Source of the DNA: a virus
Taxonomy: Duplodnaviria > Heunggongvirae > Uroviricota > Caudoviricetes
Length of the DNA: 64,000 nucleotides
Reading direction: 5' to 3' (one strand)
Virus record (IMG/VR): IMGVR_UViG_3300017971_007904
Shown here: piece by piece, positions 1 to 54,412 of the stretch
Layout of the letters: the number at the start of each line of letters is the position of its first letter
How positions within the stretch are numbered: the stretch's first letter is position 1
The notes under the pieces: model-generated
What the model saw: the letters and a program-made list of their open reading frames with translations, nothing else
The model's database searches: none
What the model was told of the DNA's origin: nothing
Translations under genes and position numbers: made by a program

Positions 1-684
1 TCATGGTGCCAAATCTAAGGTGGCCGCTTGTCTGATACCTGCGGCAAATTGGTTGCGTTTGTGATCTGGAATGTCTGGGAGCACCTTTGCTAGGATATCT
101 GCTAGCTCTTCTACGCTCATATCGGCGATCTCCTCAGTACCCAGTTGGGCCCGCATACCCAACTTGTTTCTCAGGCTGTCGATGTAGGATTTTGTCCACT
201 CATCTTGATTGAGGGGCACCCCTGGCTCACGAGGTTCGTCTGGTTGGGCTTTACTTAATGCGGCCATAATTGCCTTCGCACCGATAGCGATACGATCAGG
301 TTCGATGTTTTTGGCTTGATCGGTAAGGGTACCCAGCGCTTCATCTCTATCGACAATCTCTACTCTGTCGATGTCATCTTTGTAGAAGATGTCCGGAGAA
401 GCCATTTTCCCCGATAAGGCTTTTGTGAGGTTGAACGCTTTGAAATGGGCTTGTTCAAACCCTAGATCGATATCATCATCATCGCTAGGATTCTTCATCC
501 GGGCGAAGGTGACTCGCTGGGGTTCATGAGTGGCGTAGATATCGCCCTCGAACTTGAAGTAGAAGACAAAATTCTGGCCATCAACAAGCAAACGGATGTG
601 ATTATCCCGTTTTTCTTGGATACAGACGGCATCCCACTTGTCGAGGAGTTCACGAAATTCATTACCTACGGGTGTTCGCCACAC
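1..684 (-). CDS. hypothetical protein (GTG start)
   Basis: 227-aa ORF; GGGAGA Shine-Dalgarno 6 nt upstream of GTG at 684; no recognisable motif. Confidence 0.45.
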   Translation of the reverse strand: MWRTPVGNEFRELLDKWDAVCIQEKRDNHIRLLVDGQNFVFYFKFEGDIYATHEPQRVTFARMKNPSDDDDIDLGFEQAHFKAFNLTKALSGKMASPDIFYKDDIDRVEIVDRDEALGTLTDQAKNIEPDRIAIGAKAIMAALSKAQPDEPREPGVPLNQDEWTKSYIDSLRNKLGMRAQLGTEEIADMSVEELADILAKVLPDIPDHKRNQFAAGIRQAATLDLAP

Positions 685-1143
685 AGTTCTTCTCCCATTA
701 TCAAACCTATCGTAGTATATACCTGTATGAGGTGTAAATTGCTTAAAAGCATCAATGAGTGGATGGAAGACGTTGAGAAATCCAAGAAGCCGAGCTTCGG
801 CGATTGGATGACGAGAGAGTTCGGCGTCGAGGATAAAGATTTCGCTGATATAGGCGACATTTGGCTGGCGAACACACTGTTGAAACCTGACGGCTCTGAC
901 GAGGAGATAGAAATCAAACGGCCCACGCTCTTTACGCTCTCAAGGAACGACGATGGCACTGTGTATAAACTGGTAGTTCAAGGTAAACCCGATCCTAGTG
1001 ATCCTAGAAAAGCGGCCTTTCCGCACGCTGCGGAAAGCCCGTATCACGGTAAGGAGTTCACCCTCACCAAGGATGAGTACGAGAAGTTGATAATGCCTGT
1101 TGCTCGCCAAGGTGGCGGACCAGGGCTAGGGCTTGGAATTTAG
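526..1143 (+). CDS. hypothetical protein (start uncertain: 526 or internal ATG 727)
   Basis: 205-aa ORF ending 8 nt before the REC-PAS gene; 459 nt of it lie outside any other ORF; overlaps the minus ORF 1..684 by ~160 nt if the 526 start is used. Confidence 0.4.
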   Translation: MSGVDIALELEVEDKILAINKQTDVIIPFFLDTDGIPLVEEFTKFITYGCSPHSSSPIIKPIVVYTCMRCKLLKSINEWMEDVEKSKKPSFGDWMTREFGVEDKDFADIGDIWLANTLLKPDGSDEEIEIKRPTLFTLSRNDDGTVYKLVVQGKPDPSDPRKAAFPHAAESPYHGKEFTLTKDEYEKLIMPVARQGGGPGLGLGI

Positions 1144-1151
1144 GAGGCAGA

Positions 1152-2012
1152 ATGGGGATGGCGTGCAATAAGAGATTGTTATTGCTCATAGCTGATTATG
1201 ATGAAGAGGAGCGGACGATGCTCGTGGAATATCTTCGTCCGATAAGTGCCAAGATCAAGGAGACGGATTCGGGGGAGGAGACGATTGCGCTCCTACAACA
1301 AGAACCTTTCGATTGTCTGATCACAGATTACATCCTTCCGGATTATGATGCCGTCGCCCTAATCGAGGACATCAAGAAGCTGGGAGTGAAAGTGCCCATC
1401 GTGGTTATTACGAAGAACGGGGACGAGATGACCGCTGTGAGCGTTATGAAGGCCGGGGCACATGACTACATCCCAAAAAGTAAGCTCAGTCCCGAAACGC
1501 TAACCCGTGGTGTCACCTCAGCCATCCGTTTCCAGAAATCGGCGGAAGAGGCGAACTTCTACCGGGATTTCTACGATACGGCACCAGTTGGTTTCTACAT
1601 GACGACGGTGGAGGACGGTACCTTCATCAAGGCAAATCAGCAGTGTGTGAAGATGTTCGGATACCGAACCTTCGAGCAGATGAAGGCGGATGTGAAGACT
1701 TCCGAGTTGTACTCCAAAGAACGTCGTTCAGAACTGATTGACCTGTTGAGAACTTGGGGGCAAGTAGGTCGCTTCGAGATCAAAATGATCCTCAAAGATG
1801 GTAGTGTGAAATATTTCCTGGTATCCGCCAAACTTTGTGATGACTTTGGTTGCGACTTGTGTTCTAAGGATCAGTGCATTAGGGGATCGATTATGGATAT
1901 AACTGATCAACGCATGTTGGAATTGCAACTCGATGAGTATAAGCAACAACAGCTTGAGAACATCAAGCATCTACGAGAATCCATTGAAATTAGGTTAGCA
2001 GAAGCGGTATAG
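1152..2012 (+). CDS. stand-alone response-regulator receiver (REC) domain fused to a PAS domain
   Basis: N-terminal CheY-like receiver sequence (LLLIADYDEEE...DCLITDYILPDYD...KVPIVVITKNGD...KAGAHDYIPK); C-terminal PAS-like fold (FYDTAPVGFYMTTVEDGTFIKANQQCVKMFGY...KDGSVKYFLVSAK); SD AGGAGG upstream. Confidence 0.8.
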   Translation: MGMACNKRLLLLIADYDEEERTMLVEYLRPISAKIKETDSGEETIALLQQEPFDCLITDYILPDYDAVALIEDIKKLGVKVPIVVITKNGDEMTAVSVMKAGAHDYIPKSKLSPETLTRGVTSAIRFQKSAEEANFYRDFYDTAPVGFYMTTVEDGTFIKANQQCVKMFGYRTFEQMKADVKTSELYSKERRSELIDLLRTWGQVGRFEIKMILKDGSVKYFLVSAKLCDDFGCDLCSKDQCIRGSIMDITDQRMLELQLDEYKQQQLENIKHLRESIEIRLAEAV

Positions 2013-2014
2013 AT

Positions 2015-2485
2015 ATGCGGTTTGCTGAATGGTTGCATAATATTGAAGAGAACAAGAAGCGAATGTCAGGCGGCGGTGGCGGCTCCTCTGGAGGCGGCGG
2101 TGCCGGTGGTGGTGGATCGGCTGGCGGCGGCGCAGCAGGCGGTGCTGCTGGTGGCTCTTCAGGTTCCTCAAGTAGCTCCTCAGGAGGAAGCGGCGGTGGT
2201 AATGGTGGCCCGTCAGCGGCCAGTACTTCCACAACGTCTGCTAACGGTAATGGCAACGGTTCAGATGGCGATGGTGACGGTGACGCCGGTGACGCCGGTG
2301 ACGGCGACGAGGATGGCGCAACCACTACGAAAGATATTGCCCGACGTTACCATTACTGGCCCGGTGTCTTTGCTCCCTTTTGGCGTCCTCTGAGGACCGG
2401 AAAAGAGGGTAAGCGTAAGAAGAAAAAGAAGGAGTGCAAATGGGGTCGCAAGAACGATGGGAAGTGCCGCAAGAAACCTAAGTGA
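2015..2485 (+). CDS. Gly/Ser-rich intrinsically disordered protein with aromatic motif and Lys-rich C-terminus
   Basis: Starts 3 nt after previous stop; long G/S/A low-complexity tract, then YHYWPGVFAPFWRPL and KRKKKKKECKWGRK tail; the antisense Pro-rich ORF 1990..2325 is judged its shadow. Confidence 0.45.
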   Translation: MRFAEWLHNIEENKKRMSGGGGGSSGGGGAGGGGSAGGGAAGGAAGGSSGSSSSSSGGSGGGNGGPSAASTSTTSANGNGNGSDGDGDGDAGDAGDGDEDGATTTKDIARRYHYWPGVFAPFWRPLRTGKEGKRKKKKKECKWGRKNDGKCRKKPK

Positions 2486-2669
2486 CTTCGTCTAGCTTCA
2501 TAACAATAAAGTTTTCCTTCAAATGTTCCATTCCGATAAGTCTCAGGTGATCAAAGAGGTCGAGTAAAGCTTCATCAGCCTCTTGTTTACTCATTGTATA
2601 CCAAGTCCCTACTTTAGGATGCGTTAGGACTCGTTTACTCTCTTTGTTGTAGAGTGTATACCCGGTCAT
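2478..2669 (-). CDS. hypothetical small protein
   Basis: 63-aa ORF with 4-nt overlap to the upstream minus-strand gene. Confidence 0.4.
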   Translation of the reverse strand: MTGYTLYNKESKRVLTHPKVGTWYTMSKQEADEALLDLFDHLRLIGMEHLKENFIVMKLDEVT

Positions 2670-3001
2670 ACTGTTGGTACCTGTTGCCCAGTAGTTGGTT
2701 GCACCGTTCCTGTGCCCGTGCTTAACGCCCCTGTCTTACCAGCGCCTTGTTGTAGTTGAGTTAGCCTATCCTGTAATTTCTTTTGTAGGGCCTGAATGTC
2801 TACGTCGGTGACTTTCGACGCTTCCTCTTCACCCTGTTGGTAGAGCCGTTGTTTTGACGTACCAGGAGGTGCTTTCGATGCTTGGTTTAGCTTATCTAAT
2901 GCACTGCTAATTTGTTGAGACATCGCAGCGGTGGTTGCTTCGGGGCCCTGGATATTAGGGTTGGCTAGCTCTCTTAGCTGGAAATATTCTTCAAAAGTCA
3001 T
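2666..3001 (-). CDS. hypothetical protein
   Basis: 111-aa ORF in the minus-strand gene block. Confidence 0.5.
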   Translation of the reverse strand: MTFEEYFQLRELANPNIQGPEATTAAMSQQISSALDKLNQASKAPPGTSKQRLYQQGEEEASKVTDVDIQALQKKLQDRLTQLQQGAGKTGALSTGTGTVQPTTGQQVPTV

Positions 3002-3034
3002 TGTTTGGCCTCATTTACACCGGATTCACAGTAT

Positions 3035-3361
3035 TTAGGGACCCTTCCATATTTCTTCGCCATTATCGAAGAAGTGGACTACCTCTCCACCAGTACTTTT
3101 GTACTTGCCCTCGATGACGATTTCGCCCGCATGTATGCGCCTGTGACAGTGACAACAGATGCAAAGTGTGTTGTGTTTGCGGTATTTACCACCTTCGGTG
3201 GCTGGGACGATGCGATGGACATCAAGAACATCGTAATTAGACTCGCCACATAACTGGCAAGCCTTCTCGATTCGCTTTCGACACTGTTGAAAAGACAATC
3301 TCTTTTTCACTTCCGTACTCCGTCTTAACAGAGTGCGGAGGTCAAAGTCTATGGAGACCAA
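3035..3361 (-). CDS. HNH homing endonuclease
   Basis: CQLCG...LDVHRIVP...HN..CICCHCHRRIH matches the HNH Cys/His/Asn signature. Confidence 0.8.
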   Translation of the reverse strand: MVSIDFDLRTLLRRSTEVKKRLSFQQCRKRIEKACQLCGESNYDVLDVHRIVPATEGGKYRKHNTLCICCHCHRRIHAGEIVIEGKYKSTGGEVVHFFDNGEEIWKGP

Positions 3362-3762
3362 TACTCAAAAAGAGATGCGTCATAGATGGGGAGGTCTGAA
3401 ACATCAGTAGACTCCTCTGGGGAGTCCTCTGGAGACTTCTCTGGCGGCTCCGGTCGCTTTGTATTAACGGTTTTGAGTTCCGAGAGGGCTTCCTTGTAGA
3501 TTCTGGCGATCTCTTGGTTCATCATTTCCACAGGAGACTCGTAACCGGCGATAAAAGCGTCTTCGAGCATCTTCTTCAATTTCTTCGGGGAGAGGATGTA
3601 CTGATCCATGGGTTGCTCCTTTTTAACCGGCAAGGTTTCTCTGGTGGTATCAGAGCTATAACAGCTAGAAGAAGTCGCAGAATAGTTGGAATAAGTTCCG
3701 TAATTGGAGTAAGGCGAGCCCAATGCAGAAGAAGTTGTGCTTATTGGAATATACTTAGGCAT
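3349..3762 (-). CDS. hypothetical protein (Ser/Tyr-rich N-terminus)
   Basis: 137-aa ORF overlapping its neighbours by a few nt in an operon-like arrangement. Confidence 0.45.
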   Translation of the reverse strand: MPKYIPISTTSSALGSPYSNYGTYSNYSATSSSCYSSDTTRETLPVKKEQPMDQYILSPKKLKKMLEDAFIAGYESPVEMMNQEIARIYKEALSELKTVNTKRPEPPEKSPEDSPEESTDVSDLPIYDASLFEYWSP

Positions 3763-4345
3763 CGATCTCTTTCTCCTTTACCTGTTCTAGGTTGACGCCC
3801 GCCATGCGGAACAAACCCCGGCTTGATTTACTATAGTCAGCCGCCGTTTGGAGACATACGACCTTGGCAATCTTAGCTTGAATGATCTGAATAGCACATT
3901 CATGACAAGGAACACCACAGTAGCAGTACATCGTCGAACCAACCGTGCTTACGCCCGATTGGTTCGCCGATGCGAGGGCATTTCGTTCTGCATGAGCACA
4001 CGGACAGAGGTCGAGTCGCTCCCCTGAGGGGACGCCCATAATTCGTCTGGGGCAAACTTTTTTTCCTTCATAGGCTTCGAGGAACTGTTCGAGATTGTTG
4101 ACCTTTTGAAGTTTCAGGAAGTTCTTATCGTCACCCGTTAGGAGTTCTTCCCACATGTAGGTTAGGTATTCAGCAGAATCCGGATGTGGTACCTTCTCCG
4201 CAGCGCCGTTGTACCCTAACGAAATGATGCGATTATGCTTACTGACGAGTACAACGCCTATTTTGCGTGAATAGCATGCGTCGTTATCATCAGCTAGTGT
4301 TCGTGCTAGCTTCAGGTACTTCTTAGTCCACTTATTCATACTCAT
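3755..4345 (-). CDS. dCMP (deoxycytidylate) deaminase
   Basis: Intact zinc-deaminase motifs CAHAERNAL (HAE) and PCHEC (PCxxC); GYNG motif. Confidence 0.8.
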   Translation of the reverse strand: MSMNKWTKKYLKLARTLADDNDACYSRKIGVVLVSKHNRIISLGYNGAAEKVPHPDSAEYLTYMWEELLTGDDKNFLKLQKVNNLEQFLEAYEGKKVCPRRIMGVPSGERLDLCPCAHAERNALASANQSGVSTVGSTMYCYCGVPCHECAIQIIQAKIAKVVCLQTAADYSKSSRGLFRMAGVNLEQVKEKEIDA

Positions 4346-5322
4346 TCCTTTCCGAGAACCTTCTTAAGTGATGAAGTCATATAGAATTGCCCTCCGGTTT
4401 CGTACCATGTCTCTTCGTACATGCGACTGAAGTCCTTGATATCATCTACTGCCGCCTTGATGATACCGCCTCTCGACCCGATTAGGTCAGCGCAGGATAC
4501 GATCCAGGCTTCATTAGTCATGGGCTCAGCAGCGGCTCCGAACTCTCTTCGGGTGTGATGGCTGGCTACGATGTGACTCACCTCCCTCACGAACCAGTCA
4601 TCTGTTTGGAGCTTCCTGGCCACAAGCTGAATAAAGTTAAGACCTTTACAAGCATGACCAATGAGTGTTTCTTCGGGTCGATAGGCGGGTTGTCCGACAT
4701 CATTGATGGTGTAGGTGAATACTTTGCCGATATCATGTAGGGAGGCTCCTGCAAATACGACATCGCCGCTAAGTTGTTCTTTCCAGGGGAAGTATTCCAC
4801 GATACCCTTACAGATGTTTAACACTTCTGCCGTGTGGATGATGAGCCCCCCTTGGTAAGCGTGGTGAACTTTCTTTCCTGCTGGGCACTTCAACCACTCT
4901 TCCTTATGAATCCCTAAGCATGCTGCGACAAATTGGAAGTGTCGTTCATCGGCATAAAGGCTTTGGTCCATGATAGTCTTGTATGCTTCGGCGATATCTT
5001 CTTCCTCTGCTTTCGGGACCGCCAGAAGTATTTCGAGAATCTCGGGAGGAAGCTCGCTTCTATCGACACGTTGGAACATACCTGGGTCGAAGCTGATATC
5101 GTTATATTGGCCACCACGGTTATCACGCACGCCTTTGGTGTCGGTGTTGAAGCGAATAACTTCCCCCAATCTTGGGACATCTTCTTTGTCGGGATTCACA
5201 ATACCCCACATTGTGACTTTTACCTTCTTGTCTTTGTATGTTTGCAACATAAGCTGCCAGAAGGTAGTGCTTGGGAGTTTTTTGAAGTCTTCGTGTGTTA
5301 CGAGTCCAAGTATCTCACTCAT
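4342..5322 (-). CDS. HD-domain metal-dependent phosphohydrolase
   Basis: His (LIIHTAEV) ... HD (ASLHDIGK) ... downstream His/Asp pattern typical of the HD superfamily. Confidence 0.7.
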   Translation of the reverse strand: MSEILGLVTHEDFKKLPSTTFWQLMLQTYKDKKVKVTMWGIVNPDKEDVPRLGEVIRFNTDTKGVRDNRGGQYNDISFDPGMFQRVDRSELPPEILEILLAVPKAEEEDIAEAYKTIMDQSLYADERHFQFVAACLGIHKEEWLKCPAGKKVHHAYQGGLIIHTAEVLNICKGIVEYFPWKEQLSGDVVFAGASLHDIGKVFTYTINDVGQPAYRPEETLIGHACKGLNFIQLVARKLQTDDWFVREVSHIVASHHTRREFGAAAEPMTNEAWIVSCADLIGSRGGIIKAAVDDIKDFSRMYEETWYETGGQFYMTSSLKKVLGKE

Positions 5323-5563
5323 TGTTTTCCTCGTTGTCTGTAAAGATGTTACATATCTCCTGCTTCCAGGCGGTGTCGACGGTGCCTAGGAACTCGCATA
5401 GGACGACGGAGGTACCGGACCACCAGAAAGCGATAGCTTCAGGCGCAGCCCAAGCAAGATTTTGCTTACTTTCTTCAAGTGCGGCTGCCAAGTCTTCTTG
5501 ATACTCGAAGTCGTCAGGGATGAGGGGAATGATTCGGTCGATCACGTTTTGTAGGTTTCGCAT
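5315..5563 (-). CDS. hypothetical small protein
   Basis: 82-aa ORF overlapping the hldE 3' end by 50 nt. Confidence 0.35.
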   Translation of the reverse strand: MRNLQNVIDRIIPLIPDDFEYQEDLAAALEESKQNLAWAAPEAIAFWWSGTSVVLCEFLGTVDTAWKQEICNIFTDNEENNE

Positions 5564-6989
5564 CTTTGATCTTTTCTATCGTTTTGGTTGTCGAAAAGTC
5601 CTCTAATAAAGGGCATATGATAACCTCATCCACGAGGTTACCCCCTATTACTTTATCGGCATGATAGTCCCCTCCCTTTACCAAAATCTCCATGGGAGAG
5701 AGATTTCTGATCAAATTGTACACATCACCATCGAAAGGTACGACAAAGTCAACATGCTGCATAGAAGCGATAAGCCGCATTCTTTCATCAAGTGACTTAA
5801 TCGGTTTATCTGCGCCTTTCAAACGTTTGACGTTAGCATCGCTATCGATACCAACGATTAAGATATCGCCTTGTGCCTTAGCAAACTCCAGAACCCTGAG
5901 ATGCCCTTGGTGAAGTAGATCGAAGCAACCGTTTGTAAAAACCTTGGTGCCTCGCAATGTATCAAGATGTGGACCTAACCACTTGGCGTTGTTGAAAATC
6001 TTCGCTTCTATCGGGTCAATATGAGCGTGTAGTTCCCAAGGTGTTACAGGGTCGGTGTGTTTCTTCTGGACAAAGATGGATGAGGCGTGATTGGCGATAA
6101 TGGCTGACTCTTGGAAGTCGAAGTTCAATGCGTATGCCATTGCATAAACCGCAGCAAAGCAATCCCCCGCTCCGCTGTAACCTAATGGGTGACCAACCAC
6201 TGGCTTGTCCGACTTGTATGAAAGGGGAGGTTTCTTAGGAAGGTACGTTTGGACACCATCTGCGCCTTGTGTGATAACTAGTGCCTCGCAACGCACCTCA
6301 CTGAGAATATCCTCGTTGTAACCATTGATAGTTCGGCAGAAGTCTTCTGCTTCTTTTGCATTAGGTTTGAAGATGGTACAGTTCAACCATTGATCTATAG
6401 GTTCCAACTTGGGATCAACTAGTGTGGGCACACCATACTCGCTGCATAGCTCGATCAGGTCTTGGGCCATAGTTTCGTAGAACAAACCTTTGCCATAGTC
6501 GCTGAGTATGATGATATCGGGGTCTGATCCATAGACATACTTCTCAAATTTCTCAACGAGTTGTTTGCGAGCTTTGATAAGTGGGGCCCACTCGGGATCA
6601 TAGGATTCGATATCCCATCGGCATAGCGGTAGGTCTTTGTCGAAGAACCGTCGCTTCCTAGGTGTTTGATAGCCAAATGTTATGAGGTCGCACTTGAATC
6701 CAAAATCATGCAAAAGGCTTGCGGCGTTCTTATCGGTGATACCGAACAGGGTACAATCGACGTTAAATCCCGCAAATTGATACGCCACATTCGCAGCCCC
6801 GCCCGGTAATGTCATGGTGGGTTCTTGCACTTCAGACGCCAGAACAGGTATGGGAAATTCTGGGCTAATACGATTTACTGCGACCTGATAGAATTGGTCA
6901 AGCAACACATCGCCAACGACGGCGATCTTGAGTTTTTCGTCCTCTTGAGTGTTAAGGAACTCGTGGATAAGCGAAGTGATATTTCTCAT
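5514..6989 (-). CDS. hldE: bifunctional D-beta-D-heptose 7-phosphate kinase / D-beta-D-heptose 1-phosphate adenylyltransferase (ADP-heptose synthase)
   Basis: N-terminal pfkB/ribokinase-like domain (LAVVGDVLLDQF...GAGDCF) plus C-terminal cytidylyltransferase motif (FTNGCFDLLHQGHLRVLEFAK); 491 aa, matching HldE/RfaE size. Confidence 0.85.
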   Translation of the reverse strand: MRNITSLIHEFLNTQEDEKLKIAVVGDVLLDQFYQVAVNRISPEFPIPVLASEVQEPTMTLPGGAANVAYQFAGFNVDCTLFGITDKNAASLLHDFGFKCDLITFGYQTPRKRRFFDKDLPLCRWDIESYDPEWAPLIKARKQLVEKFEKYVYGSDPDIIILSDYGKGLFYETMAQDLIELCSEYGVPTLVDPKLEPIDQWLNCTIFKPNAKEAEDFCRTINGYNEDILSEVRCEALVITQGADGVQTYLPKKPPLSYKSDKPVVGHPLGYSGAGDCFAAVYAMAYALNFDFQESAIIANHASSIFVQKKHTDPVTPWELHAHIDPIEAKIFNNAKWLGPHLDTLRGTKVFTNGCFDLLHQGHLRVLEFAKAQGDILIVGIDSDANVKRLKGADKPIKSLDERMRLIASMQHVDFVVPFDGDVYNLIRNLSPMEILVKGGDYHADKVIGGNLVDEVIICPLLEDFSTTKTIEKIKDAKPTKRDRPNHSPHP

Positions 6990-7016
6990 ACCGTTAACAA
7001 AGTAACGGTGTTATTA

Positions 7017-7316
7017 TTATTCGCCTAGCACGAGATCGAGGAGTGCATAGTATGTATCGGAGATCAACTTGATACGATTAACCGGTGATCGAAATCGCCA
7101 CAACCATGATTTCTCTAGCAGACCGATTGCTTGTTGAAGAATCACAAAGTTGATCTTATTTTCTTCGAGGCTAATCTCTGAACGCTTCCATTGTTGAATC
7201 AAATCAGCAGGAATTGCGCCGCCCACGATAGCTTCGTGTTCGCCTCCGTAATCCTCATCGTACTCAAAATGTTGGTCTTCGTCTCCGAAAAAGTCACCCT
7301 CTCCAAATCTTTTCAT
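7017..7316 (-). CDS. hypothetical acidic protein
   Basis: 99-aa ORF adjacent to hldE. Confidence 0.45.
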   Translation of the reverse strand: MKRFGEGDFFGDEDQHFEYDEDYGGEHEAIVGGAIPADLIQQWKRSEISLEENKINFVILQQAIGLLEKSWLWRFRSPVNRIKLISDTYYALLDLVLGE

Positions 7317-8080
7317 TATTTAACCATTTGATAGGTGTATCTCATTTGTTGCCACAGTTTCACTACCTGTAGCTCATCTGCCGAGAGGTCTGCGTTCTTA
7401 ACGAACTCACTCACCTGGGCAAATGGAGCCTGTAACGTCTTACTGCGAATCCATTCATCTTTTACGAAAAGACCGAATTTGTTATAACGGGTGAAGACGC
7501 CCATCTCGGAGGTTTCGGACTTACAACAAAGTTGTGATATCATATCAGGAGGTCCCATGACGGATTCCATCATCTTCATCACGGCTTGTTTATCATCCTT
7601 ATTTTCATTCCAAAACTCTCCAAAGGTATTTAGTGCTTTAACGAACCTTTCATTGTCACCACTTTTGAAGTACCATAATGGGTCGCAAACACCGAATGTA
7701 ATGTTCGGATCATTGAGTTGTTCTAACACGTCTTTTGAAAGTGATCTCACCGCCATTACATCGGGGTCAATTACAAGAAGGGGCTCTTGTACGAAGCCCT
7801 CTTTCAGAGCAATACAAGTGGCGTAGAGTTTGTTCAGCGCCGGACAGTTGTGTTTGTTTCCTAAATTTTCATGCTGAAAGAAGCGGATGCCGCATCGGTA
7901 AGGCCAGTTGAAGGATAGCTGACTTCCTGTGAAGTTGCGGGAGCACAGCACACTTACCTCAGCGTCCGGTAGATGTTGATATATCGAAAACCACGAGGCA
8001 AATGCCATCCAATCCTGGTGTTGCGAGTAATCGCAAGACAGTAGTATATTGAGCCGGTCGCCGCCTGATGTAATTTCCAT
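7316..8080 (-). CDS. hypothetical protein
   Basis: 254-aa ORF, first gene of the leftward block. Confidence 0.55.
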   Translation of the reverse strand: MEITSGGDRLNILLSCDYSQHQDWMAFASWFSIYQHLPDAEVSVLCSRNFTGSQLSFNWPYRCGIRFFQHENLGNKHNCPALNKLYATCIALKEGFVQEPLLVIDPDVMAVRSLSKDVLEQLNDPNITFGVCDPLWYFKSGDNERFVKALNTFGEFWNENKDDKQAVMKMMESVMGPPDMISQLCCKSETSEMGVFTRYNKFGLFVKDEWIRSKTLQAPFAQVSEFVKNADLSADELQVVKLWQQMRYTYQMVK

Positions 8081-9476: not shown

Positions 9477-10994
9477 ATGAACAGAAACGCTGTTCTAGCA
9501 GGCGTCGTAGGAGCCGTCTGTTTGTTTGGTGTCCTAATGGTCATCATTGTCTACAACTGCTTCAGGATCGACGTGCCTAGCAAACACATCGCCGTCCTAA
9601 CGAAGCGAACTGGTCTCGATATCGAGAACCATCAGGAGATTTCCCCAGATGCCGACCACAAAGGTATCCAGCGGGACATCCTGACTGAGGGTCGATATTT
9701 CCGGAATCCCTACTCGTGGGACTGGGAGATCATCCCCATGATCGAGGTTCCCACTGGTAAGCTTGGGGTCCCCGTGCGGCTCGTGGGGGATGACTTACCC
9801 TACGGTGATATCATCGCATGGAAAGAGGAACAGAAAGGCGTTGTCCCTAATGTTCTGCGACCTGGACGATACGCCATCAACCCCTGGATTGAAAAGGTGG
9901 AGATGCACACGCCCGTGACGGTTCCTGCCGGTTTCAAGGGAATTGTCACATTGCTTGCAGCCCCGATGCCAACCGACCCCAATGTCTTGTTGGTCGAAGC
10001 GGGTAAACGAGGTCCACAGAAAGAGACGTTGAATCCGGGGACGTATTACGTCAACCCGTATGTCAAGCGAATCAATCTTATGGACTGCCGTAGCCAACGA
10101 TTCAATCTCGGCCAGAACAAGGACTTTGGCTTTCCGAGTAAGGACGGCTTCTGGGTGAAGCTGGATGGTATCATCGAGTTCCGAGTCAAGCCCGATATGG
10201 CAGCGGAGGTTTTCGTCACCTACAACGAAGTTAGCAATGACTACGAAGGTGAGCGAGTGGACGCCGAAGTGATCAACAAGATCATCCTGCCTAACGCCCT
10301 ATCGTTCTGTCGTTTGAGAGGCTCAAATAACACCGGACGGGACTTTGTTGGTGGGGATACACGTATCCAGTTCCAAGAGGATTTCCAAAAGGCGATGCGA
10401 GCGGCCTGTGATCCGCTTGGCGTTGAGATTATTCAGGCTCTTGTTACGAAGATCGAACCGCCCGATGCCATCGCCTCCCCGATTCGGGATCGAGAGGTCG
10501 CCGAACAACGCTTGGGTCAGTACACACAACAGATCATTCAGCAGCAAAGTGAGAAGGCTCTTGAGATCGAGAAGGCACTCATCGAGCAGAAGAAGGAACT
10601 TATTGGTGCTGAACAGGAAGTTGTCGTGATGACGGTTAAGGCAAAAGAGGAACAGCAAGTTGCTGTGACTAAGGCCAATGAGAACCTTGGTGTGGCCCAA
10701 TTCAAACTGGAGGCCGCTAAGGATGAAGCACTTGCCATCGAAGCAAGAGGTAAGGCTACGGCGGACGTGATCATGTTCGACAACGCAGCCGAGGCTGCGG
10801 GGTGGAAACGTGCTGTCGCTGCGTTTAGTGGTAGCGGTCACGAGTACGCCAAGTATGTCCTCTACACCAAGTTGGCACCCGGCTTTAGGAGCATCATGGC
10901 CAATACAGCCGACTCGCCGCTGATGGAAATCTTCAAGGATTTCCGAAAGACCTCCCAATTCGCCCCGGTTCGATCTGCCCCGGCGACCCGTTAA
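9477..10994 (+). CDS. SPFH/band-7 (flotillin/YqiK-like) membrane protein, paralog 1
   Basis: N-terminal transmembrane helix; long C-terminal coiled coil with Ala/Glu-rich flotillin-like tail (EQRLGQY...KATADVIMFDNAAEAAGWKRAV..FSGSG). Confidence 0.65.
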   Translation: MNRNAVLAGVVGAVCLFGVLMVIIVYNCFRIDVPSKHIAVLTKRTGLDIENHQEISPDADHKGIQRDILTEGRYFRNPYSWDWEIIPMIEVPTGKLGVPVRLVGDDLPYGDIIAWKEEQKGVVPNVLRPGRYAINPWIEKVEMHTPVTVPAGFKGIVTLLAAPMPTDPNVLLVEAGKRGPQKETLNPGTYYVNPYVKRINLMDCRSQRFNLGQNKDFGFPSKDGFWVKLDGIIEFRVKPDMAAEVFVTYNEVSNDYEGERVDAEVINKIILPNALSFCRLRGSNNTGRDFVGGDTRIQFQEDFQKAMRAACDPLGVEIIQALVTKIEPPDAIASPIRDREVAEQRLGQYTQQIIQQQSEKALEIEKALIEQKKELIGAEQEVVVMTVKAKEEQQVAVTKANENLGVAQFKLEAAKDEALAIEARGKATADVIMFDNAAEAAGWKRAVAAFSGSGHEYAKYVLYTKLAPGFRSIMANTADSPLMEIFKDFRKTSQFAPVRSAPATR

Positions 10995-11027
10995 GTCAAC
11001 CATTCCGAATAAGTAAGGAGAAATATC

Positions 11028-12620
11028 GTGAATATGCAAAAGCTTAAGCTGATTGCAATAAGCATCGGCGTTGTGTTGTTTGTTGCGTTCTTTTTCGTCT
11101 GGACCGTCAACAGGGTCTACGTCCCCGAGGGCAAGAGTCTCTTGCTTCGATACAAGGGCCCACTGGTCTTCGGTAAGCGAGATATGGCCCCGAAGGGCCA
11201 CTTCGCCGCAGAGGGCCAAATCGGTGTTCGAGCAAAGCTGCGAGGTCCTGGTCGCCACTTCTACTGTCCCGTTTGGTGGGAGAGGACGATTGTGGATGAT
11301 CAAGTTGTCAAGCCGGGACAAGTGGCCATTGTTCGTTCCATGCTTGGTGACAATTTACCCTCTGGCCAATATCTCGTCGACGGCGAGCTTGGACAAACAA
11401 AGCACAAGGGTATTCTCCGCAAGGCGTATGCGCCAGGACGATACAGGGTTAACCCTTATGCCTACGAGTTTCAGATCGTAGAAGTCGTGAAGCAGAATGT
11501 CGGTAAACAGGTGAAGCATTCGGGGTGGGTAAGTATCCCCACCGGCTATGTCGGTGTTTGTACGAACCTTACGGATATCCCCCAACGCAAGCAAGTGACC
11601 GGTATCCAATCGAAAGTTCTGCCGCCCGGCATCTATCCTGTTAATAGTAAGGAACAACAGATCGACATCGTCGAGATCGGTTTCAGAGAAACCAGTGTTC
11701 ATGCCGAGCTACAACGGGATAGTGACGGTCAAGTGATACTGGACGATACTGGTGAACCGCAAATTGCGGATCAATCAACCGGCATCAACTACCCGAGTAA
11801 CGACGGGTTCCCCATCGTGATGGATTGGACCGCCATCTGGGGTATCATGCCCGATCAGGCACCGGAGGCCATCCGTACTTTCGGAGACGTTGATGCGGTC
11901 GAACAGAAGGTTGTCCTTCCTCAGACCGAGTCCATATGTAGGAATAAGGGCTCTCAGCACTCCGCTGTTGAACTCCTGGTTGGCGAACAACGCCAACAGT
12001 TCCAACTGGACGCCTCCGATGCCTTCCGTAATGTGCTGAAAGAGAAGAACCTCACTCTTCTCTACGGTTTGGTAAGCCACATCTACATTCCCCAAAGTGT
12101 GCGCAAGCCAATCCAGACAAAGTACATCGCCGACGAACTCAAGCTAACCAAAGACCAAGAGCAGAAAACTGCGAAGGTCGAAGCTGATCTGCGTGAGGCG
12201 GAAAGGCAGGTGGGCTTGGAAGGTGAACGAGTGAAATCTGACACGAGGAAGAAAGTTGCGGAAGCTATCGCCATGGGTCGTAAGACGGTTGGTGAAACGC
12301 ATGCCGAAACTACGAAGCTCGTGGCAGCCATCGATAAGGAGGTGGCCGAGTTAGAAGCCCAAGCAACCGTCGTGTTGGGTGAGGCGAGAGCCAACGCTGA
12401 GAAGATGCAAAAGGAGGCGAGATCGCAGAAGTTTGCGCTCGCCGTCGAAGCGTTTGGTTCCGGTTCCGCCTACAACGAGTGGGTGTTCGCTACTGGCCTG
12501 CCGGATGATGTAGACCTCAAGCTGCTATACGCAGGGGAGGGTACGTTCTGGACCGATGTCGACGGGTTCACGAACAAGCTCCTAGGCAAGCAGGAGAGGG
12601 AGCGTCAGAAGAGGAAATAA
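11028..12620 (+). CDS. SPFH/band-7 (flotillin/YqiK-like) membrane protein, paralog 2
   Basis: N-terminal TM helix; same domain order and similar C-terminal tail (…ANAEKMQKEARSQKFALAVEAFGSGSAY…) as the upstream paralog. Confidence 0.65.
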   Translation: MNMQKLKLIAISIGVVLFVAFFFVWTVNRVYVPEGKSLLLRYKGPLVFGKRDMAPKGHFAAEGQIGVRAKLRGPGRHFYCPVWWERTIVDDQVVKPGQVAIVRSMLGDNLPSGQYLVDGELGQTKHKGILRKAYAPGRYRVNPYAYEFQIVEVVKQNVGKQVKHSGWVSIPTGYVGVCTNLTDIPQRKQVTGIQSKVLPPGIYPVNSKEQQIDIVEIGFRETSVHAELQRDSDGQVILDDTGEPQIADQSTGINYPSNDGFPIVMDWTAIWGIMPDQAPEAIRTFGDVDAVEQKVVLPQTESICRNKGSQHSAVELLVGEQRQQFQLDASDAFRNVLKEKNLTLLYGLVSHIYIPQSVRKPIQTKYIADELKLTKDQEQKTAKVEADLREAERQVGLEGERVKSDTRKKVAEAIAMGRKTVGETHAETTKLVAAIDKEVAELEAQATVVLGEARANAEKMQKEARSQKFALAVEAFGSGSAYNEWVFATGLPDDVDLKLLYAGEGTFWTDVDGFTNKLLGKQERERQKRK

Positions 12621-15694: not shown

Positions 15695-15735
15695 TTGGAA
15701 ACCAGCAGGATTGACCCGCAATTTTGGAGGTAGCT

Positions 15736-17898
15736 ATGTCCACCGAGAATCCGGCCCCAGCCAGTGCCGTCGACAATGGTCAATCGACCTTTGATAAACT
15801 GGCCAAATCTTTCGACTGTGAAGAGTTCCGCAAGCTCACAACTGAGATGACCTTCTCCGAGTATCTCGAAGAGGCCGAGCGGAACCCCCTGGTGTGCCTC
15901 AGCGCCTACCAGAGAATCTACGACATGGTTCTTTCCGCTGGTGTCGAGCGCATCAAGCGGTTCAACAGAACCTTCACCCGCTACAAGTTCTTCGCCGAAC
16001 ATCCGGAGTTTCCGATCTACGGCCTGGAACAGGCCATCGACGGCTTCGTTGGCAACCTGAAAGGTGCCGCTGGGTACTATGGTACCGAAAAGCGAATCCT
16101 CCTGTTGCACGGCCCGGTCGGCTCGTCGAAGTCCACCGCTGTCCGAGCGCTCAAGCGGGGCTTGGAAGAGTACACCATGACGGATCGGGGTGCCCTCTAT
16201 ACCTTCGATTGGATTGACCTACCCGTCGAAGACGACGACGACGGCCCCGGCCTGGAGCTTCGCAAAATTGCGCCGTGCCCCATGCAGGACGACCCCGTCA
16301 AACTCATCCCGCCCGGCCCGATGCGAAAAGAGATGGAGAAGAAGCTCAACGTCGCATTGGAGAACATGAAACTCAGCGATGACGAAGCCGTCGACGCCGA
16401 GCTTCACCGCATCTTCAAGATTCGCCTGGATGGTGAACTCAACCCGCACGACAAGTTCTTCTACCGTGAGTTGCTTCGTCGCTACAAGGGCGACTGGCGG
16501 AGGGTCATGGAGAAGCACATTCGTGTGCGGCGTGTCGTCCTCTCCGAGTCCGACCGTGTCGGCATCGGTACGTTCAGCCCCAAGGACGAGAAGAACCAGG
16601 ATTCGACGGAGTTGAGTGGCGATGTCAACTATATGAAGTTGGGCCAGTACGGTGTCGACTCCGACCCCCGTGCCTTCAACTTTGATGGTGAGTTCGAGGT
16701 GAGCAACCGAGGGCTCTTGGAGATGATCGAAATGCTCAAACTCAACCAGGAGTTCTTGTACGACCTCCTGGGGGCAGCACAAGAGCGACAGATCAAACCC
16801 AAGAAGTTCCCGCAGGTTGGCATCGACGTGTGCATCCTCGGCCACACCAACGATCCGGAATACCAGAAGCTCCTCAAAAACGAGTGCATGGAGGCGCTGA
16901 AGGATAGGACGATTCGGGTCGACTGGCCCTACGTCCTTCGTTGGGAAGACGAGATCAATGTCCTTCGTCACGACTACAACCAGGAAAGGGTTCGACAGCA
17001 CATCGCTCCCCACACCATCGAGATCGCAGCGCTGTTCGCAATTCTCACCCGGTTGAAGACCGACAAGAACATCAAGCTCGATCCGGTCAAGAAGGCCAAG
17101 CTCTACAACGGCCAGACCGTCCCCGGCTATACGGAAGAAGCCGTCAAGGAGTTGATGGACGCCGAACCGTCCGAGGGTATGGACCAGGGCATCAGCGCCC
17201 GTTACGTCCAGAACAAGCTGTCGAACTCCCTCGTGTCCCACCACGACTACGTCAACCCGTTCATGGTTCTCCACGAACTGAAAGAGGGTCTGAAGACCTA
17301 CTCCCTCGTCGGTGACAACGAAAACCGTCGTGCGTTCTACGAGACGTGCGTCGACCTCGCCAAGAAGGAGTTGGACGAGATTCTCAAGAACGAGGTTCGT
17401 CGGGCTCTCGTTATGGACGATGAAGCCATCAGTCGGATGTTCACCTCGTACTTGGACAACGTCTTCGCCTATATCAACAACGAGAAGGTGAAGAACGAGT
17501 ACACCGGTGAGTTCGAGGAACCGAATGAGCGGTTGATGCGGTCCATCGAAGAGAAGATCGACGTTCCCGATCAGGGTGTCGACGACTTCCGCCGCAGCAT
17601 CGCCGCTTACGTCGGCCACATCACCCGCAACGAGGGCGAGAAGGCCCTCAAGTGGGACAGCAACCCCGATCTTGCAAGGGCACTGGAATTGAAGCTGTTC
17701 GAGGAAACGAAGGACAGCATCAAGCTCAGCAGCCTTACCAAGGTCACCGGCGTCATCGACCCGGATATGCAAGAGAAGATCAACCAGATCAAAACCCGGT
17801 TGGTCAAAAACTACGGTTACGACGAGCGCAGTGCGACCGACGTGTTGAACTACGTCGGCTCCATCTTCGCCCGTGGTGACATGGTCGAACAGCAGTAA
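15736..17898 (+). CDS. prkA: PrkA/YeaG-family serine protein kinase (AAA+ N-terminal domain)
   Basis: Walker A LLLHGPVGSSKST in a PrkA-type AAA domain; 721 aa from the ATG at 15736 (GGAGG SD); the C-terminal half matches the PrkA kinase region. Confidence 0.85.
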   Translation: MSTENPAPASAVDNGQSTFDKLAKSFDCEEFRKLTTEMTFSEYLEEAERNPLVCLSAYQRIYDMVLSAGVERIKRFNRTFTRYKFFAEHPEFPIYGLEQAIDGFVGNLKGAAGYYGTEKRILLLHGPVGSSKSTAVRALKRGLEEYTMTDRGALYTFDWIDLPVEDDDDGPGLELRKIAPCPMQDDPVKLIPPGPMRKEMEKKLNVALENMKLSDDEAVDAELHRIFKIRLDGELNPHDKFFYRELLRRYKGDWRRVMEKHIRVRRVVLSESDRVGIGTFSPKDEKNQDSTELSGDVNYMKLGQYGVDSDPRAFNFDGEFEVSNRGLLEMIEMLKLNQEFLYDLLGAAQERQIKPKKFPQVGIDVCILGHTNDPEYQKLLKNECMEALKDRTIRVDWPYVLRWEDEINVLRHDYNQERVRQHIAPHTIEIAALFAILTRLKTDKNIKLDPVKKAKLYNGQTVPGYTEEAVKELMDAEPSEGMDQGISARYVQNKLSNSLVSHHDYVNPFMVLHELKEGLKTYSLVGDNENRRAFYETCVDLAKKELDEILKNEVRRALVMDDEAISRMFTSYLDNVFAYINNEKVKNEYTGEFEEPNERLMRSIEEKIDVPDQGVDDFRRSIAAYVGHITRNEGEKALKWDSNPDLARALELKLFEETKDSIKLSSLTKVTGVIDPDMQEKINQIKTRLVKNYGYDERSATDVLNYVGSIFARGDMVEQQ

Positions 17899-17923
17899 CG
17901 CTCGCTGGGTTAGGGACGACCAG

Positions 17924-17966
17924 CCCCCACCTGTCGCTGCACGCTGCGACAGGTGGGGGCATTTTA
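17924..17966 (+). terminator. Rho-independent terminator after prkA
   Basis: CCCCCACCTGTCGC / GCGACAGGTGGGGG 14-bp stem followed by ATTTT. Confidence 0.7.
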
Positions 17967-17979
17967 CCCGAGGTTTGTC

Positions 17980-18258
17980 ATGGTCAAGTACGTTAACTTT
18001 CAGGTTCCCGGTTTTGGTTCGGTTGTGTCGGTCGAGTCGGGGCATTCGCTCGTCCGGTTGGCCCAGTTGCCGTTAGAAGATGCTATCGTTGCCCTGAAGG
18101 ATTGGGGTAAGAAGTTTCGCAAAAGGTTGATACAGCAATCAGCAACCCCACGAGACCGTTATACCGAATTGGCCCCTTATAACAACCCTCAAGGTTACAC
18201 GGAGCAATCTGCCCAGGATGTTTTCAATCACGTAGGTCAACTACTGGCCACTTCGTAG
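17980..18258 (+). CDS. small protein resembling the PrkA C-terminal tail
   Basis: ATG with GAGG SD; C-terminus GYTEQSAQDVFNHVGQLLA parallels the PrkA C-terminus GYDERSATDVLNYVGSIFA. Confidence 0.4.
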   Translation: MVKYVNFQVPGFGSVVSVESGHSLVRLAQLPLEDAIVALKDWGKKFRKRLIQQSATPRDRYTELAPYNNPQGYTEQSAQDVFNHVGQLLATS

Positions 18259-18268
18259 GAGGTGCAAC

Positions 18269-19501
18269 ATGCCACGGCGCATACAAGAAGATCATAAGAT
18301 GTTCCGAGACGTAGTGTCCGGAACCACAAGACGGGAGTTGAAGAAGTGGATTAAGAGTGGTCGTATCGTCCGCCGTCGAGGTAAGGACAAGCTTGCCATT
18401 CCGATCCCCCGAATCGACCTCCCGCATTTCATATTCGGTAGGCCGACCGAAGGCATCGGTCGGGGGCCCGGCAAGGATGGTGACAAGGTCGGTGAAGAAC
18501 CTGCCCCAAATCAAGGCGACGGGGCCAGCACCGATCCAGGTGATGCCATCCTGGTCGATGTCGACATGGAACGAATCCTCAAGGAAATGGGCGAGGATTG
18601 GGGCTTGCCGAACATGCTCCCGAAAGAGAACGCCACTTTCGAGGAAGTGAAGATTCGGTACAACAGCTTGTCGAAGATCGGCCCGCCGAGTTTGCTTCAC
18701 AAGCGGAAGACCATTCTTCAAACCCTCAAACGTATGTCGGCCATGGGCCAGTTGGGTCCGGAGAACGCACGGATACTCCCCGGTTACAACGTGCCCGTCA
18801 CGCCGCTGATTCCAATCAAGGATGATATGCGGTTTCGCAAGTGGACGGAGCAGCGCATCCCGTCCAGCAACGCCGTCATCTTCTTCGCCCGTGATATCTC
18901 GGGTTCGATGACGACATACAAGTGCGAGATCGTTTCGGACATGGCGTGGTGGATCGATATGTGGATTCGCCAGTTCTATGAAAAAACTGAGCGGGTCTAC
19001 GTTGTTCACGACACCCGTGCCAAAGAAGTCGACGAAGAACGGTTCTACAAGCTCAGGATGGGTGGTGGAACCATTTGCAGTAGCGCACTGAGGTACATCG
19101 CCAAACAGTTGAAGCATCGCTATCCCCCGGAGAAATGGAACGTGTACGTGTTCTATTTTTCGGACGGCGACAACTGGATGGACGACAACGACAAGTTCGT
19201 CAAGGTTCTCCGTGATGACCTTCCGCCCGACAAGGTCAACTTGTTTGGCATGACGCTGATTCTTCCCTGGTGCCAGGAGGGGCTCAAGGAACACCTGGAT
19301 GCTTTGATCAAGAATGGCAAGCTTGACAACAAGTTCATCCGTACCACCGGCATTGATCGTCCGGACAAGGATAAGAACGACCGGTGGGGTTGGTGGTGGT
19401 GGGACGAAACCATGGATGAAGATGCCCGTAACGATGCCATCCGCAACGCTATCCGAGAGTTGCTGGGGGCTCACGATCAGGCTTCCGAAAAAGCCGCATA
19501 A
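18269..19501 (+). CDS. yeaH: YeaH/YhbH-family DUF444 (vWA-like) protein
   Basis: vWA-like core FFARDISGSM...YVFYFSDGDNW; size and position between prkA and spoVR as in bacterial yeaG-yeaH-ycgB loci. Confidence 0.85.
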   Translation: MPRRIQEDHKMFRDVVSGTTRRELKKWIKSGRIVRRRGKDKLAIPIPRIDLPHFIFGRPTEGIGRGPGKDGDKVGEEPAPNQGDGASTDPGDAILVDVDMERILKEMGEDWGLPNMLPKENATFEEVKIRYNSLSKIGPPSLLHKRKTILQTLKRMSAMGQLGPENARILPGYNVPVTPLIPIKDDMRFRKWTEQRIPSSNAVIFFARDISGSMTTYKCEIVSDMAWWIDMWIRQFYEKTERVYVVHDTRAKEVDEERFYKLRMGGGTICSSALRYIAKQLKHRYPPEKWNVYVFYFSDGDNWMDDNDKFVKVLRDDLPPDKVNLFGMTLILPWCQEGLKEHLDALIKNGKLDNKFIRTTGIDRPDKDKNDRWGWWWWDETMDEDARNDAIRNAIRELLGAHDQASEKAA

Positions 19502-19515
19502 TTGGAGGTGCAACC

Positions 19516-27985: not shown

Positions 27986-27994
27986 CTTTCTACA

Positions 27995-28283: not shown

Positions 28284-28418
28284 ATGAAACGGCTTTCAAT
28301 GTTAATCTATGATGTTTATCCGTGTGAAGGTTATCTTGCCGCCGACCCTCCTGACAACCCAGAGATTTCGGCACCGGACTCCATCGACTTATCAGAAGTT
28401 GGAACGGAACGAGAATGA
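28284..28418 (+). CDS. 44-aa upstream ORF translationally coupled to the GluRS-like gene (possible leader peptide)
   Basis: Strong SD AGGAGGT 6 nt upstream; its stop TGA overlaps the ATG of the next gene (gaATGa); its first 15 nt ATGAAACGGCTTTCA nearly duplicate the start of the next gene (ATGAAAACGGCTTTCA). Confidence 0.4.
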   Translation: MKRLSMLIYDVYPCEGYLAADPPDNPEISAPDSIDLSEVGTERE

Positions 28419-54410: not shown

Positions 54411-54412
54411 AC

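Follow-up and report, generated by a model that had tools for sequence, protein, structure and literature searches.

A probable orphan atypical response regulator with a REC-PAS-helix layout, and the glycine-rich gene tied to it, on a likely large-phage contig

Response regulators that consist of a receiver (REC) domain and a PAS domain, with no output domain, form a large class, described in the Galperin census as common in methanogens and other archaea and present also in bacteria; they are expected to dimerize and to make protein-protein contacts, and none has been studied experimentally (PMC5847659). A receiver that lacks any of the five catalytic residues is termed a pseudo-receiver, the atypical regulators characterized so far are mostly orphans, and redox-controlled atypical regulators are known in which redox-active cysteines supply an alternative input (PMC12632262). 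Together with the short PAS-helix proteins, such regulators are established kinds of protein, and viral PAS, REC, and kinase genes have already been annotated. Here, we analyze a gene of this type, open reading frame 1 (ORF1), and the glycine-rich gene that directly follows it (ORF2), in a 64,000-nucleotide stretch of the Caudoviricetes record IMGVR_UViG_3300017971_007904. This whole stretch is referred to below as the window. The sequence viewed comprised the window and 8.8 kb upstream of it (within locus L001 of the same contig), about a quarter of the ~340-kb parent contig.

Like the stand-alone REC-PAS regulators, the ORF1 protein has an N-terminal REC and a single PAS domain and lacks an output domain for DNA binding or enzymatic activity. 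Unlike them, it is phage-borne, has a Tyr at the second Mg2+ position of the receiver, ends in a C-terminal helix of ~35 residues, carries a Cys-rich loop in the PAS domain, and is tied to a Gly-rich partner gene. It resembles the pseudo-receivers FrzS, RitR, and Hp1021 (PMC12632262) in lacking one of the five catalytic residues and in being an orphan with no nearby kinase, but it keeps the Asp, the Thr, the Lys, and the aromatic switch, and its putative output is a PAS domain plus a helix rather than a DNA-binding domain. The N-terminal REC of a cyanobacterial dual-sensor hybrid kinase (6OAP/6OAQ) shares with ORF1 the GAxDY(I/L)xK motif and a long alpha5 leading into the sensor domain, whereas ORF1 has neither DHp nor catalytic domains and ends after one PAS domain and a linker-like helix. 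A PAS core followed by a single helix (J-alpha) is also found in PpSB1-LOV and YtvA-LOV, where the helix mediates dimerization and signaling. ORF1 differs from these in lacking a flavin-binding motif and in having an additional receiver, while its REC-less relatives show exactly their short PAS-helix layout. Among viral proteins, the nearest structural neighbors of the ORF1 model in BFVD were the kinase of Agrobacterium phage Atu_ph07, Alteromonas phage PT11-V22, the kinases of Ectocarpus virus EsV-1, an uncultured-phage protein annotated as "PAS domain", and giant-virus kinases and regulators; these matches cover the whole REC-PAS-helix poorly, the template modeling score (TM-score) normalized to the query being at most 0.42.

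The domain architecture of ORF1 was established with sequence profiles and a structure model. Pfam placed Response_reg (PF00072) on residues 12-110 (E 1.7e-18; 67.2 bits vs a cut-off of 30.2), and PAS models spanned residues 135-251, with PAS_8 above its cut-off (27.1 bits vs 21.8) and PAS_9 (25.1 bits vs 27) and PAS (22.0 vs 22.6) both just under theirs. The AlphaFold2 model, built from a four-sequence alignment with a predicted local distance difference test (pLDDT) score of 77.6, showed a receiver with the (beta-alpha)5 fold over residues 8-132, its strands and helices numbering five each. This is followed by a PAS domain at 146-249 with five strands (146-152, 158-161, 204-213, 219-228, and 242-249) and by a single long helix at 251-285. 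When the model was compared with the PDB using Foldseek, it matched the FixJ, PhoP, and CheY receivers at a root-mean-square deviation of 1.7-3 A and LOV/PAS structures as well, PpSB1-LOV and YtvA-LOV among them; receivers ranked first with both Foldseek and HMMER, led by NtrC1 and by the REC of the dual-sensor kinase 6OAP. The Pfam, AlphaFold2, and NCBIfam scans of ORF1 revealed no domain for DNA binding or enzymatic activity, and NCBIfam and PADLOC returned only generic receiver matches. A reading made earlier from the letters alone (the sequence-only reading) had proposed a receiver fused to a PAS domain without a classical output domain, and Pfam, AlphaFold2, and Foldseek bear this out, the PAS fold included.

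The PAS domain carries the family motif FYxxFYxxAPVGFY..DGTF.KAN, and no flavin or heme motif was apparent when it was inspected by eye. Its last hairpin holds a Cys-rich insertion (Table 1), within which pLDDT falls below 50 at residues 232-239. The number of cysteines in this loop ranges from 0 to 5 across the family, the relatives having 2 to 5 and the T4-like clade none. From its sequence, the loop may be a metal or redox site.

Within the receiver, four of the five catalytic residues are kept (D15, D59, T87, and K109), while Tyr16 replaces the second Mg2+-binding Asp. The register at Y16 comes from three independent alignments: the Pfam coordinates, HMMER against NtrC1, NtrC, and 6OAP, and MAFFT with Escherichia coli CheY. 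It is also fitted by R21, an Arg five residues past the second-acid position; a conserved Arg at this distance is present in CheY, PhoB, OmpR, and Spo0F. The two closest homologues, P0002 and P0003 (61-64% identity), likewise have Tyr at the second-acid position, and P0004 (41%) has Asp. It might be that D17 stands in for the missing acid. Because the second position of the DD pair is a Tyr and the definition needs all five residues, the ORF1 receiver is, on this alignment, a pseudo-receiver in the sense of PMC12632262, yet it keeps the Asp site and is not aspartate-less. The sequence-only reading had singled out the phospho-acceptor Asp, the Lys/Thr residues, and the PAS fold as the points on which the assignment turns: D15, D59, T87, and K109 are present and a PAS fold is indeed predicted, but Tyr16 leaves the acid pocket incomplete.

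To place ORF1 among its relatives, we used protein look-ups and a degenerate DNA pattern for the PAS motif FYxxAP[VI]GFYxT, from which the genomic contexts described below were taken. Five matches of the DNA pattern, including both from GTDB genomes (L030 and L031), were discarded as chance matches full of stop codons. Only four full-length close homologues of ORF1 were present among 5.8e9 indexed proteins. An exhaustive profile search added ~10 more distant relatives of 265-290 amino acids (aa) with the same layout, all of them metagenomic, and also brought up many giant REC-(PAS)n hybrid kinases that match the whole REC-PAS unit. No named cellular orthologue of ORF1 was found in the protein searches, the close relatives all being metagenomic.

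At four independent loci (L005/L013, L010, L029, and L033), a histidine kinase and a single-domain REC are encoded directly upstream of the REC-PAS-helix protein, and in all four the REC-PAS protein has a complete pocket. The order is REC, CHASE3-HisKA-HATPase_c kinase, REC-PAS in L005/L013, a 527-kb IMG/VR contig (operon at 3973-6810 of L005). In L010 (2965-5715), a kinase with an ethylene-receptor-like ETR1_N and PAS input is followed by REC and REC-PAS; the two-component operons of L029 and L033 lie at 2954-6205 and 1454-3777, the L033 kinase having a PAS input. A different picture emerges where the kinase is absent. L022 (802-2785), compared with its close relative L013 (6931-11399), lacks exactly the ~2.6 kb that in L013 hold the kinase, the REC, and two small ORFs. 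The difference is a deletion or insertion that arose naturally, and the REC-PAS protein of L022 has the substitution D59N. D59N is also found, with no kinase, in a myovirus clade (L008, L009, L016, L018, L024, and L025) whose family gene lies amid T4-like baseplate, sheath, and tube genes. Within this clade, L006 and L007 encode a REC and the helix only, with the pocket D-H-D, and L012, L014, and L026 encode the PAS domain and the helix only. L020 likewise encodes a PAS-helix protein without a REC. The window's own group contains PAS-helix proteins without any REC as well (L019, L023, and L028). REC-less relatives measure 150-180 aa. In the window and the 8.8 kb upstream, we found no kinase, using a hidden Markov model (HMM) of phage kinase cores and tblastn, and no second REC.

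Taken together, these contexts reveal a pattern: a complete pocket accompanies an adjacent phage kinase, whereas at loci that lack the kinase the receiver is changed or missing, and the PAS domain and especially the helix persist. The helix is the only module common to the REC-helix, PAS-helix, and REC-PAS-helix variants. Judging by D59N and the loss of the REC, the receiver is dispensable in these relatives of ORF1. We also observed that in T4-like myoviruses (L006, L008, L012, L016, and L018) the family gene always adjoins two genes, a conserved 124-aa gene (MRKVGLLDVKAALQDERF...) and a convergent 182-aa gene; the latter has a weak Sigma70_r2 match and possibly encodes a gp55-type late sigma factor.

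ORF1 is the middle gene of three on the plus strand, protein A, ORF1, and ORF2, that are flanked by minus-strand genes; its ATG is preceded, 6 nt ahead, by the strong Shine-Dalgarno sequence AGGAGG. Protein A is encoded directly upstream of the (REC)-PAS gene in L001, L002, L003, L023, L019, and L028. ORF2 homologues directly follow the ORF1 homologue in L002, L003, L004, L023, and L028, and start at or over the upstream stop codon; every ORF1 homologue of this clade, with or without a REC, is followed by one. L023 retains the neighbors of the window on both sides: protein A, ORF2, the 61-aa and 111-aa minus-strand genes, a deoxycytidine monophosphate (dCMP) deaminase, and an HD protein. As far as this gene order goes, the conserved unit is protein A, the (REC)-PAS-helix protein, and ORF2, kept with or without the REC. 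No genes other than ORF2 and protein A accompany the PAS-helix gene throughout, and by this adjacency the two would be its best candidate partners.

The ORF2 protein can be divided into four segments. Residues 1-17 contain a helix motif (MRFAEWLHNIEENKKRM); residues 18-82 are a G/S/A-rich stretch of 65 residues with net charge 0; residues 83-101 form a D/G-rich acidic patch with net charge -9; and residues 102-156 (55 residues) hold an aromatic YHYWPGVFAPFW followed by a K/R-rich tail with C-x9-C, with net charge +17. The overall isoelectric point is 9.7. This composition agrees with the sequence-only description of a G/S-rich protein with an aromatic motif and a polybasic tail. The tail suggests binding to nucleic acid or to anionic lipid. 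Protein A combines a small, beta-rich core with a C-terminal tail rich in Gly and Pro; its AlphaFold2 model was poor (pLDDT 59.7), it has no Pfam, PHROG, NCBIfam, or PADLOC match, tblastn against phages gave no match, and a homologue search returned only the protein itself. Its start at 727 rather than 526 follows the gene called in L001 and the homologue alignment. The protein A tail (window 1090-1143) is Gly/Pro/Met-rich and reads GGGPGLGLGI; the relatives L023, L019, and L028 have GGGMPGMGMPPGLPPGM and GGMGGGMGMGGGLG, of the GGMPGMG type. This tail is reminiscent of the GGM tail of GroEL. Protein A also has an F/I-x-[DE]-W-M-E motif related to the N-terminal motif of ORF2.

We propose, with moderate confidence, that ORF1 is an orphan atypical response regulator that acts by protein-protein contacts of the PAS domain and the C-terminal helix rather than through a kinase-driven receiver. 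In this proposal, ORF1 would descend from a phage-borne operon of histidine kinase, single-domain REC, and REC-PAS-helix that is intact in other large phages, and in the window lineage the kinase and the small REC would no longer be linked to it. Efficient kinase-driven phosphorylation of ORF1 is doubtful because of the Tyr in place of the second Mg2+-binding Asp, and the receiver is more probably a conformational or interaction module. The PAS domain and the helix would be the working end, expected to dimerize and to bind a partner, and this binding could possibly be controlled by a ligand, a metal, or the redox state sensed at the Cys-rich loop. The ORF2 protein, predicted to be mostly disordered, should bind DNA, RNA, or an anionic membrane through its polybasic aromatic C terminus. 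ORF2 and protein A form a conserved cassette with the PAS-helix protein, with ORF2 the best candidate for its functional partner.

Several observations weigh against this proposal. D59, T87, K109, and Y106 are invariant in the window clade, which would also fit continued phosphorylation of the receiver, with D15 and D17 as metal ligands. The REC is the best-conserved part of ORF1 in the clade, at 69-73% amino acid identity vs 58-65% for the PAS domain and 36-44% for the helix, and with synonymous divergence (dS) saturated and nonsynonymous divergence (dN) at 0.19-0.26 this domain is not decaying. A kinase may lie elsewhere in the 340-kb genome, our search having reached about a quarter of it. 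We identified no partner, ligand, or cofactor of ORF1, and its link to ORF2 is one of conserved adjacency alone. Finally, with regard to the viral setting, no capsid, terminase, or tail family match was obtained among ~40 larger window ORFs in a scan that was not exhaustive.

The partner role proposed for ORF2 has to be set against a second possible role, that of a capsid-targeted internal (ejection) protein of the T4 type, whose targeting peptide would be cut after Glu by the prohead protease and which would be packed with the DNA and injected. ORF2 has no family match in Pfam, PHROG, NCBIfam, or PADLOC and no tblastn match to phages. Its C terminus found nothing in the index of 5.8e9 proteins, which is uninformative given that ORF2-type proteins are absent there even as exact sequences, and back-translated ORF2 motifs gave no confirmed relative in IMG/VR or JGI metagenomes. 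The N terminus is more suggestive. The capsid-targeting sequence of T4 is MKTYQEFIAE (PMC8442874), in which targeting depends on positions 4 and 7, and processing after Glu on positions 8 and 10 (PMC9026906); N-terminal propeptides of this type measure 10-19 residues. The T4 internal proteins are diverse, basic, lysine-rich, and non-essential, have only the targeting sequence in common, and contact DNA with their lysines (PMC3012670, PMC8442874). ORF2 resembles IPI-IPIII of T4 in its short N-terminal motif (aromatic/[LI]xE), in the variability of its body, and in being basic and rich in lysine; it has no sequence homology to these proteins, however, is mostly Gly-rich and disordered, and contains an acidic patch.

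The pattern aromatic-x-x-aromatic-[LIV]-x-E is present in four of the six ORF2 homologues (L002, L004, L023, and L028). The window and L003 deviate, with I-E-E three residues later, the window copy having F3, W6, and L7 and an Asn where the Glu is expected. Three other small window ORFs, all on the minus strand, open with the same motif: MEKFKQFLAE (51935-52294), almost in register with the T4 sequence, MQFRLWLEQ (25141-25653), and MRFRKFLEI (55704-56114). Such starts number four in the window, ORF2 included, against ~0.3 expected, for a short pattern that was drawn up with the data already in view. Among the window ORFs scanned, however, there was no gp21-type prohead protease, capsid, or scaffold gene, the replication gene DnaE is not T4-like, and a role as capsid cargo leaves the tight conserved pairing with the PAS protein unexplained. 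We therefore regard an internal-protein role for ORF2 as possible but rather unlikely. A double-glycine leader of the microcin/bacteriocin type was considered for the same N terminus. In such leaders, G-G is preceded by a conserved hydrophobic residue (-4), a Leu (-7), and a Glu (-8), and the exporter has a C39 peptidase. By eye, the ORF2 residues at -4, -7, and -8 are Met, Lys, and Asn, a poor fit; the homologues in L023, L028, and L004 do not fit, and no exporter gene is nearby.

Returning to the receiver, an unlikely alternative to our proposal of an orphan regulator is that ORF1 is a functional phospho-accepting regulator that receives its phosphate from a host histidine kinase (or from acetyl phosphate), so that the phage could read host physiology. 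The invariant residues listed above, the presence of both D15 and D17, and the strong purifying selection on the REC would all suit such a role, and as there is no phage kinase in the window or the 8.8 kb upstream, the kinase would be encoded elsewhere. Against it, the direct Mg2+ ligand is replaced by Tyr in the ORF1 receiver, and in CheY substitutions at the equivalent D13 cripple phosphorylation. Relatives with complete pockets use a kinase of their own, and orthologous cassettes without any REC exist (L023 and L028). The sequence-only reading had taken the receiver to imply phosphorylation by a host kinase. A host kinase is not implied by a viral receiver, because relatives carry a phage-encoded kinase in the same operon, as they do at four independent loci; the loss of the phospho-Asp or of the whole REC in sister phages and Tyr16 in the window leave that claim further unsupported.

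ORF1 might instead still belong to a two-component system encoded by the phage, in which case the kinase and the small REC would be located elsewhere in the 340-kb genome. The ancestral arrangement of kinase, REC, and REC-PAS is seen in four independent relatives and only about a quarter of the parent contig was covered, both of which would allow for this. The kinase and REC-PAS genes are adjacent, however, in every kinase-bearing relative, the receiver is degenerate wherever the locus kinase is absent, and the ORF1 receiver is itself non-canonical at the second DD position. With no HisKA/HATPase_c-like ORF in the window or L001, we consider a distant phage kinase quite unlikely.

A broader scenario would combine the sensory and the cargo roles. 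Here, the cassette would be the remnant of a phage-owned sensory pathway rewired to virion cargo: the PAS-helix protein, its receiver no longer in need of a kinase, would sense redox state or metal through its Cys loop and govern protein A and ORF2, which, bearing T4-like capsid-targeting peptides, would be packaged alongside the DNA and enter the next host by injection. We hold this scenario to be very doubtful. If it were true, related huge phages would still drive the regulator with a phage membrane sensor kinase (with CHASE3 or ethylene-receptor-like input), and phages would run complete two-component systems of their own.

The last alternative concerns the coding strand of 2015..2485, which the sequence-only reading had left to be decided after noting an open antisense frame. 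That frame is indeed open, over 1990-2325 (111 aa). It shares wobble positions with ORF2, and for this reason third-position variation alone cannot decide the strand. Comparison of the window with L002 showed that the plus frame is unbroken, although the DNA has diverged by ~33% and there are five in-frame indels; codon differences number 55 synonymous vs 42 non-synonymous, the ends of ORF2 are conserved, the C terminus being nearly identical in the two, and the low-complexity middle varies by in-frame indels only. In L004, where the ORF2 copy is less Gly-rich, only the plus frame is open and stops occur in all five others. The antisense frame covers only the low-complexity part of ORF2, without the conserved ends, and would overlap ORF1. 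On the strength of this frame conservation, the homologues, and the L004 stops, ORF2 is a real plus-strand gene and the antisense frame owes its openness to GGN/GCN codons, which settles the strand question for the plus strand. That the antisense ORF codes, or that the stretch is a non-coding GC-rich repeat, is highly improbable despite the 111-aa open frame and its shared wobble positions, given the plus frame held open between conserved ends in two genomes, the L004 stops, and the homologues at five other loci with a conserved start just after or overlapping the upstream stop codon. A frameshift fusion of ORF1 and ORF2 is also unlikely, since ORF2 opens with a conserved start codon and then (R/Q/D)-F at each of the six loci.

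Table 1. Features of the three-gene cassette and its surroundings, in window coordinates.
Feature	Position	Strand	Description
Protein A	727..1143	+	138 aa; opens the conserved three-gene cassette; called at 727, not 526
ORF1	1152..2012	+	286 aa; REC + PAS + C-terminal helix, an atypical response regulator
Receiver domain, residues 8-132	1173..1547	+	Pfam, AlphaFold2, alignments
D15	1194-1196	+	CheY D12; first acid of the DD pair
Y16	1197-1199	+	CheY D13; second acid, direct Mg2+ ligand; Tyr here
D17		+	CheY F14
D59	1326-1328	+	CheY D57; phospho-acceptor Asp
T87	1410-1412	+	CheY T87
Y106		+	CheY Y106; switch residue
K109	1476-1478	+	CheY K109
PAS domain, residues 135-250	1554..1901	+	Pfam, AlphaFold2, fold matches
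Cys-rich insertion, residues 229-242	1836-1877	+	C229-x4-C234-x2-C237-x4-C242; last PAS hairpin
C-terminal helix, residues 251-286	1902..2009	+	Proposed output/dimerization element; AlphaFold2
ORF2	2015..2485	+	156 aa; Gly-rich, Lys-tailed; begins 2 nt past the ORF1 stop codon
ORF2 N-terminal motif MRFAEWLHNIEE	2015..2050	+	Hypothesis: like the T4 capsid-targeting sequence MKTYQEFIAE; homologue N termini compared
Antisense open frame, not a gene	1990..2325	-	111 aa; Pro-rich

Downstream of the cassette, the 3' ends of ORF2 and of a convergent 63-aa minus-strand gene (2478-2669) overlap by 8 bp (2478-2485), and the same convergent arrangement is present in L002. Because of this overlap, there is no space for a terminator between the two genes; scans for promoters and terminators gave matches at chance level only.

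The viral origin of the window is likely on indirect grounds: the context of the ORF1 homologues, the contig size, and the kinship of its DnaE. The parent contig measures up to 339,821 bp, and homologues of ORF1 were found in IMG/VR contigs and beside T4-like tail genes. By DnaE, the closest phage in GenBank is LR756511, an uncultured phage of 595 kb (40% identity), while a DNA search of window positions 1-8000 against GenBank phages gave no match. An archaeal host is unlikely in view of the transfer-messenger RNA (tmRNA), DnaE, DnaJ, and PrkA genes. The gene for DnaE (DNA polymerase III alpha) is split into two plus-strand halves ~7 kb apart (22665-25193 and 32300-34936), the first of which contains Hint and LAGLIDADG domains (an intein) within the PHP region. 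Between the two halves sits a full-length tmRNA gene (27636-27988, plus strand), with the ARAGORN tag AEPVRMAA and an Rfam RF00023 match of 95.6 bits over model positions 1-374.

Other window genes are cell-like. A PrkA (AAA_PrkA + PrkA), DUF444/YeaH, and SpoVR trio at 15724-21144 (plus strand) corresponds to a bacterial stress- or sporulation-associated operon, here on a phage-like genome. Further such genes, at 9477-12620, 48271-49893, 54335-55501, 28415-29743, and 5514-6989, encode two tandem SPFH/Band 7 proteins, a three-domain thiamine-pyrophosphate enzyme, a full DnaJ (J domain, CXXCXGXG, and C-terminal domain), a class I Glu/Gln-tRNA synthetase catalytic domain, and a PfkB-cytidylyltransferase fusion. 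Upstream, a metabolic run at 2753-6454 of L001 (~2.4-6.1 kb before the window start) encodes an isocitrate/isopropylmalate dehydrogenase, a protein of the phosphoenolpyruvate mutase/isocitrate lyase family, and the large and small subunits of aconitase.

In the literature on phage two-component systems that we searched, we found neither a phage operon combining a kinase with a REC and a REC-PAS protein, nor its stepwise reduction, nor its pairing with a Gly-rich gene described, and we know of no account of such a phage operon and its stepwise decay. The phage family offers a natural dissection of the REC-PAS class: members with a kinase and a complete pocket, members with no kinase and a lost Mg2+ ligand or phospho-Asp, PAS-helix proteins, and REC-helix proteins. 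These natural variants point to the C-terminal helix as the output element. The absence of ORF2-type partners from a large protein collection indicates that low-complexity genes can be overlooked. Since some large phages carry complete kinase and regulator operons, the presence of a receiver in a virus is by itself no proof that the virus eavesdrops on the kinases of its host.

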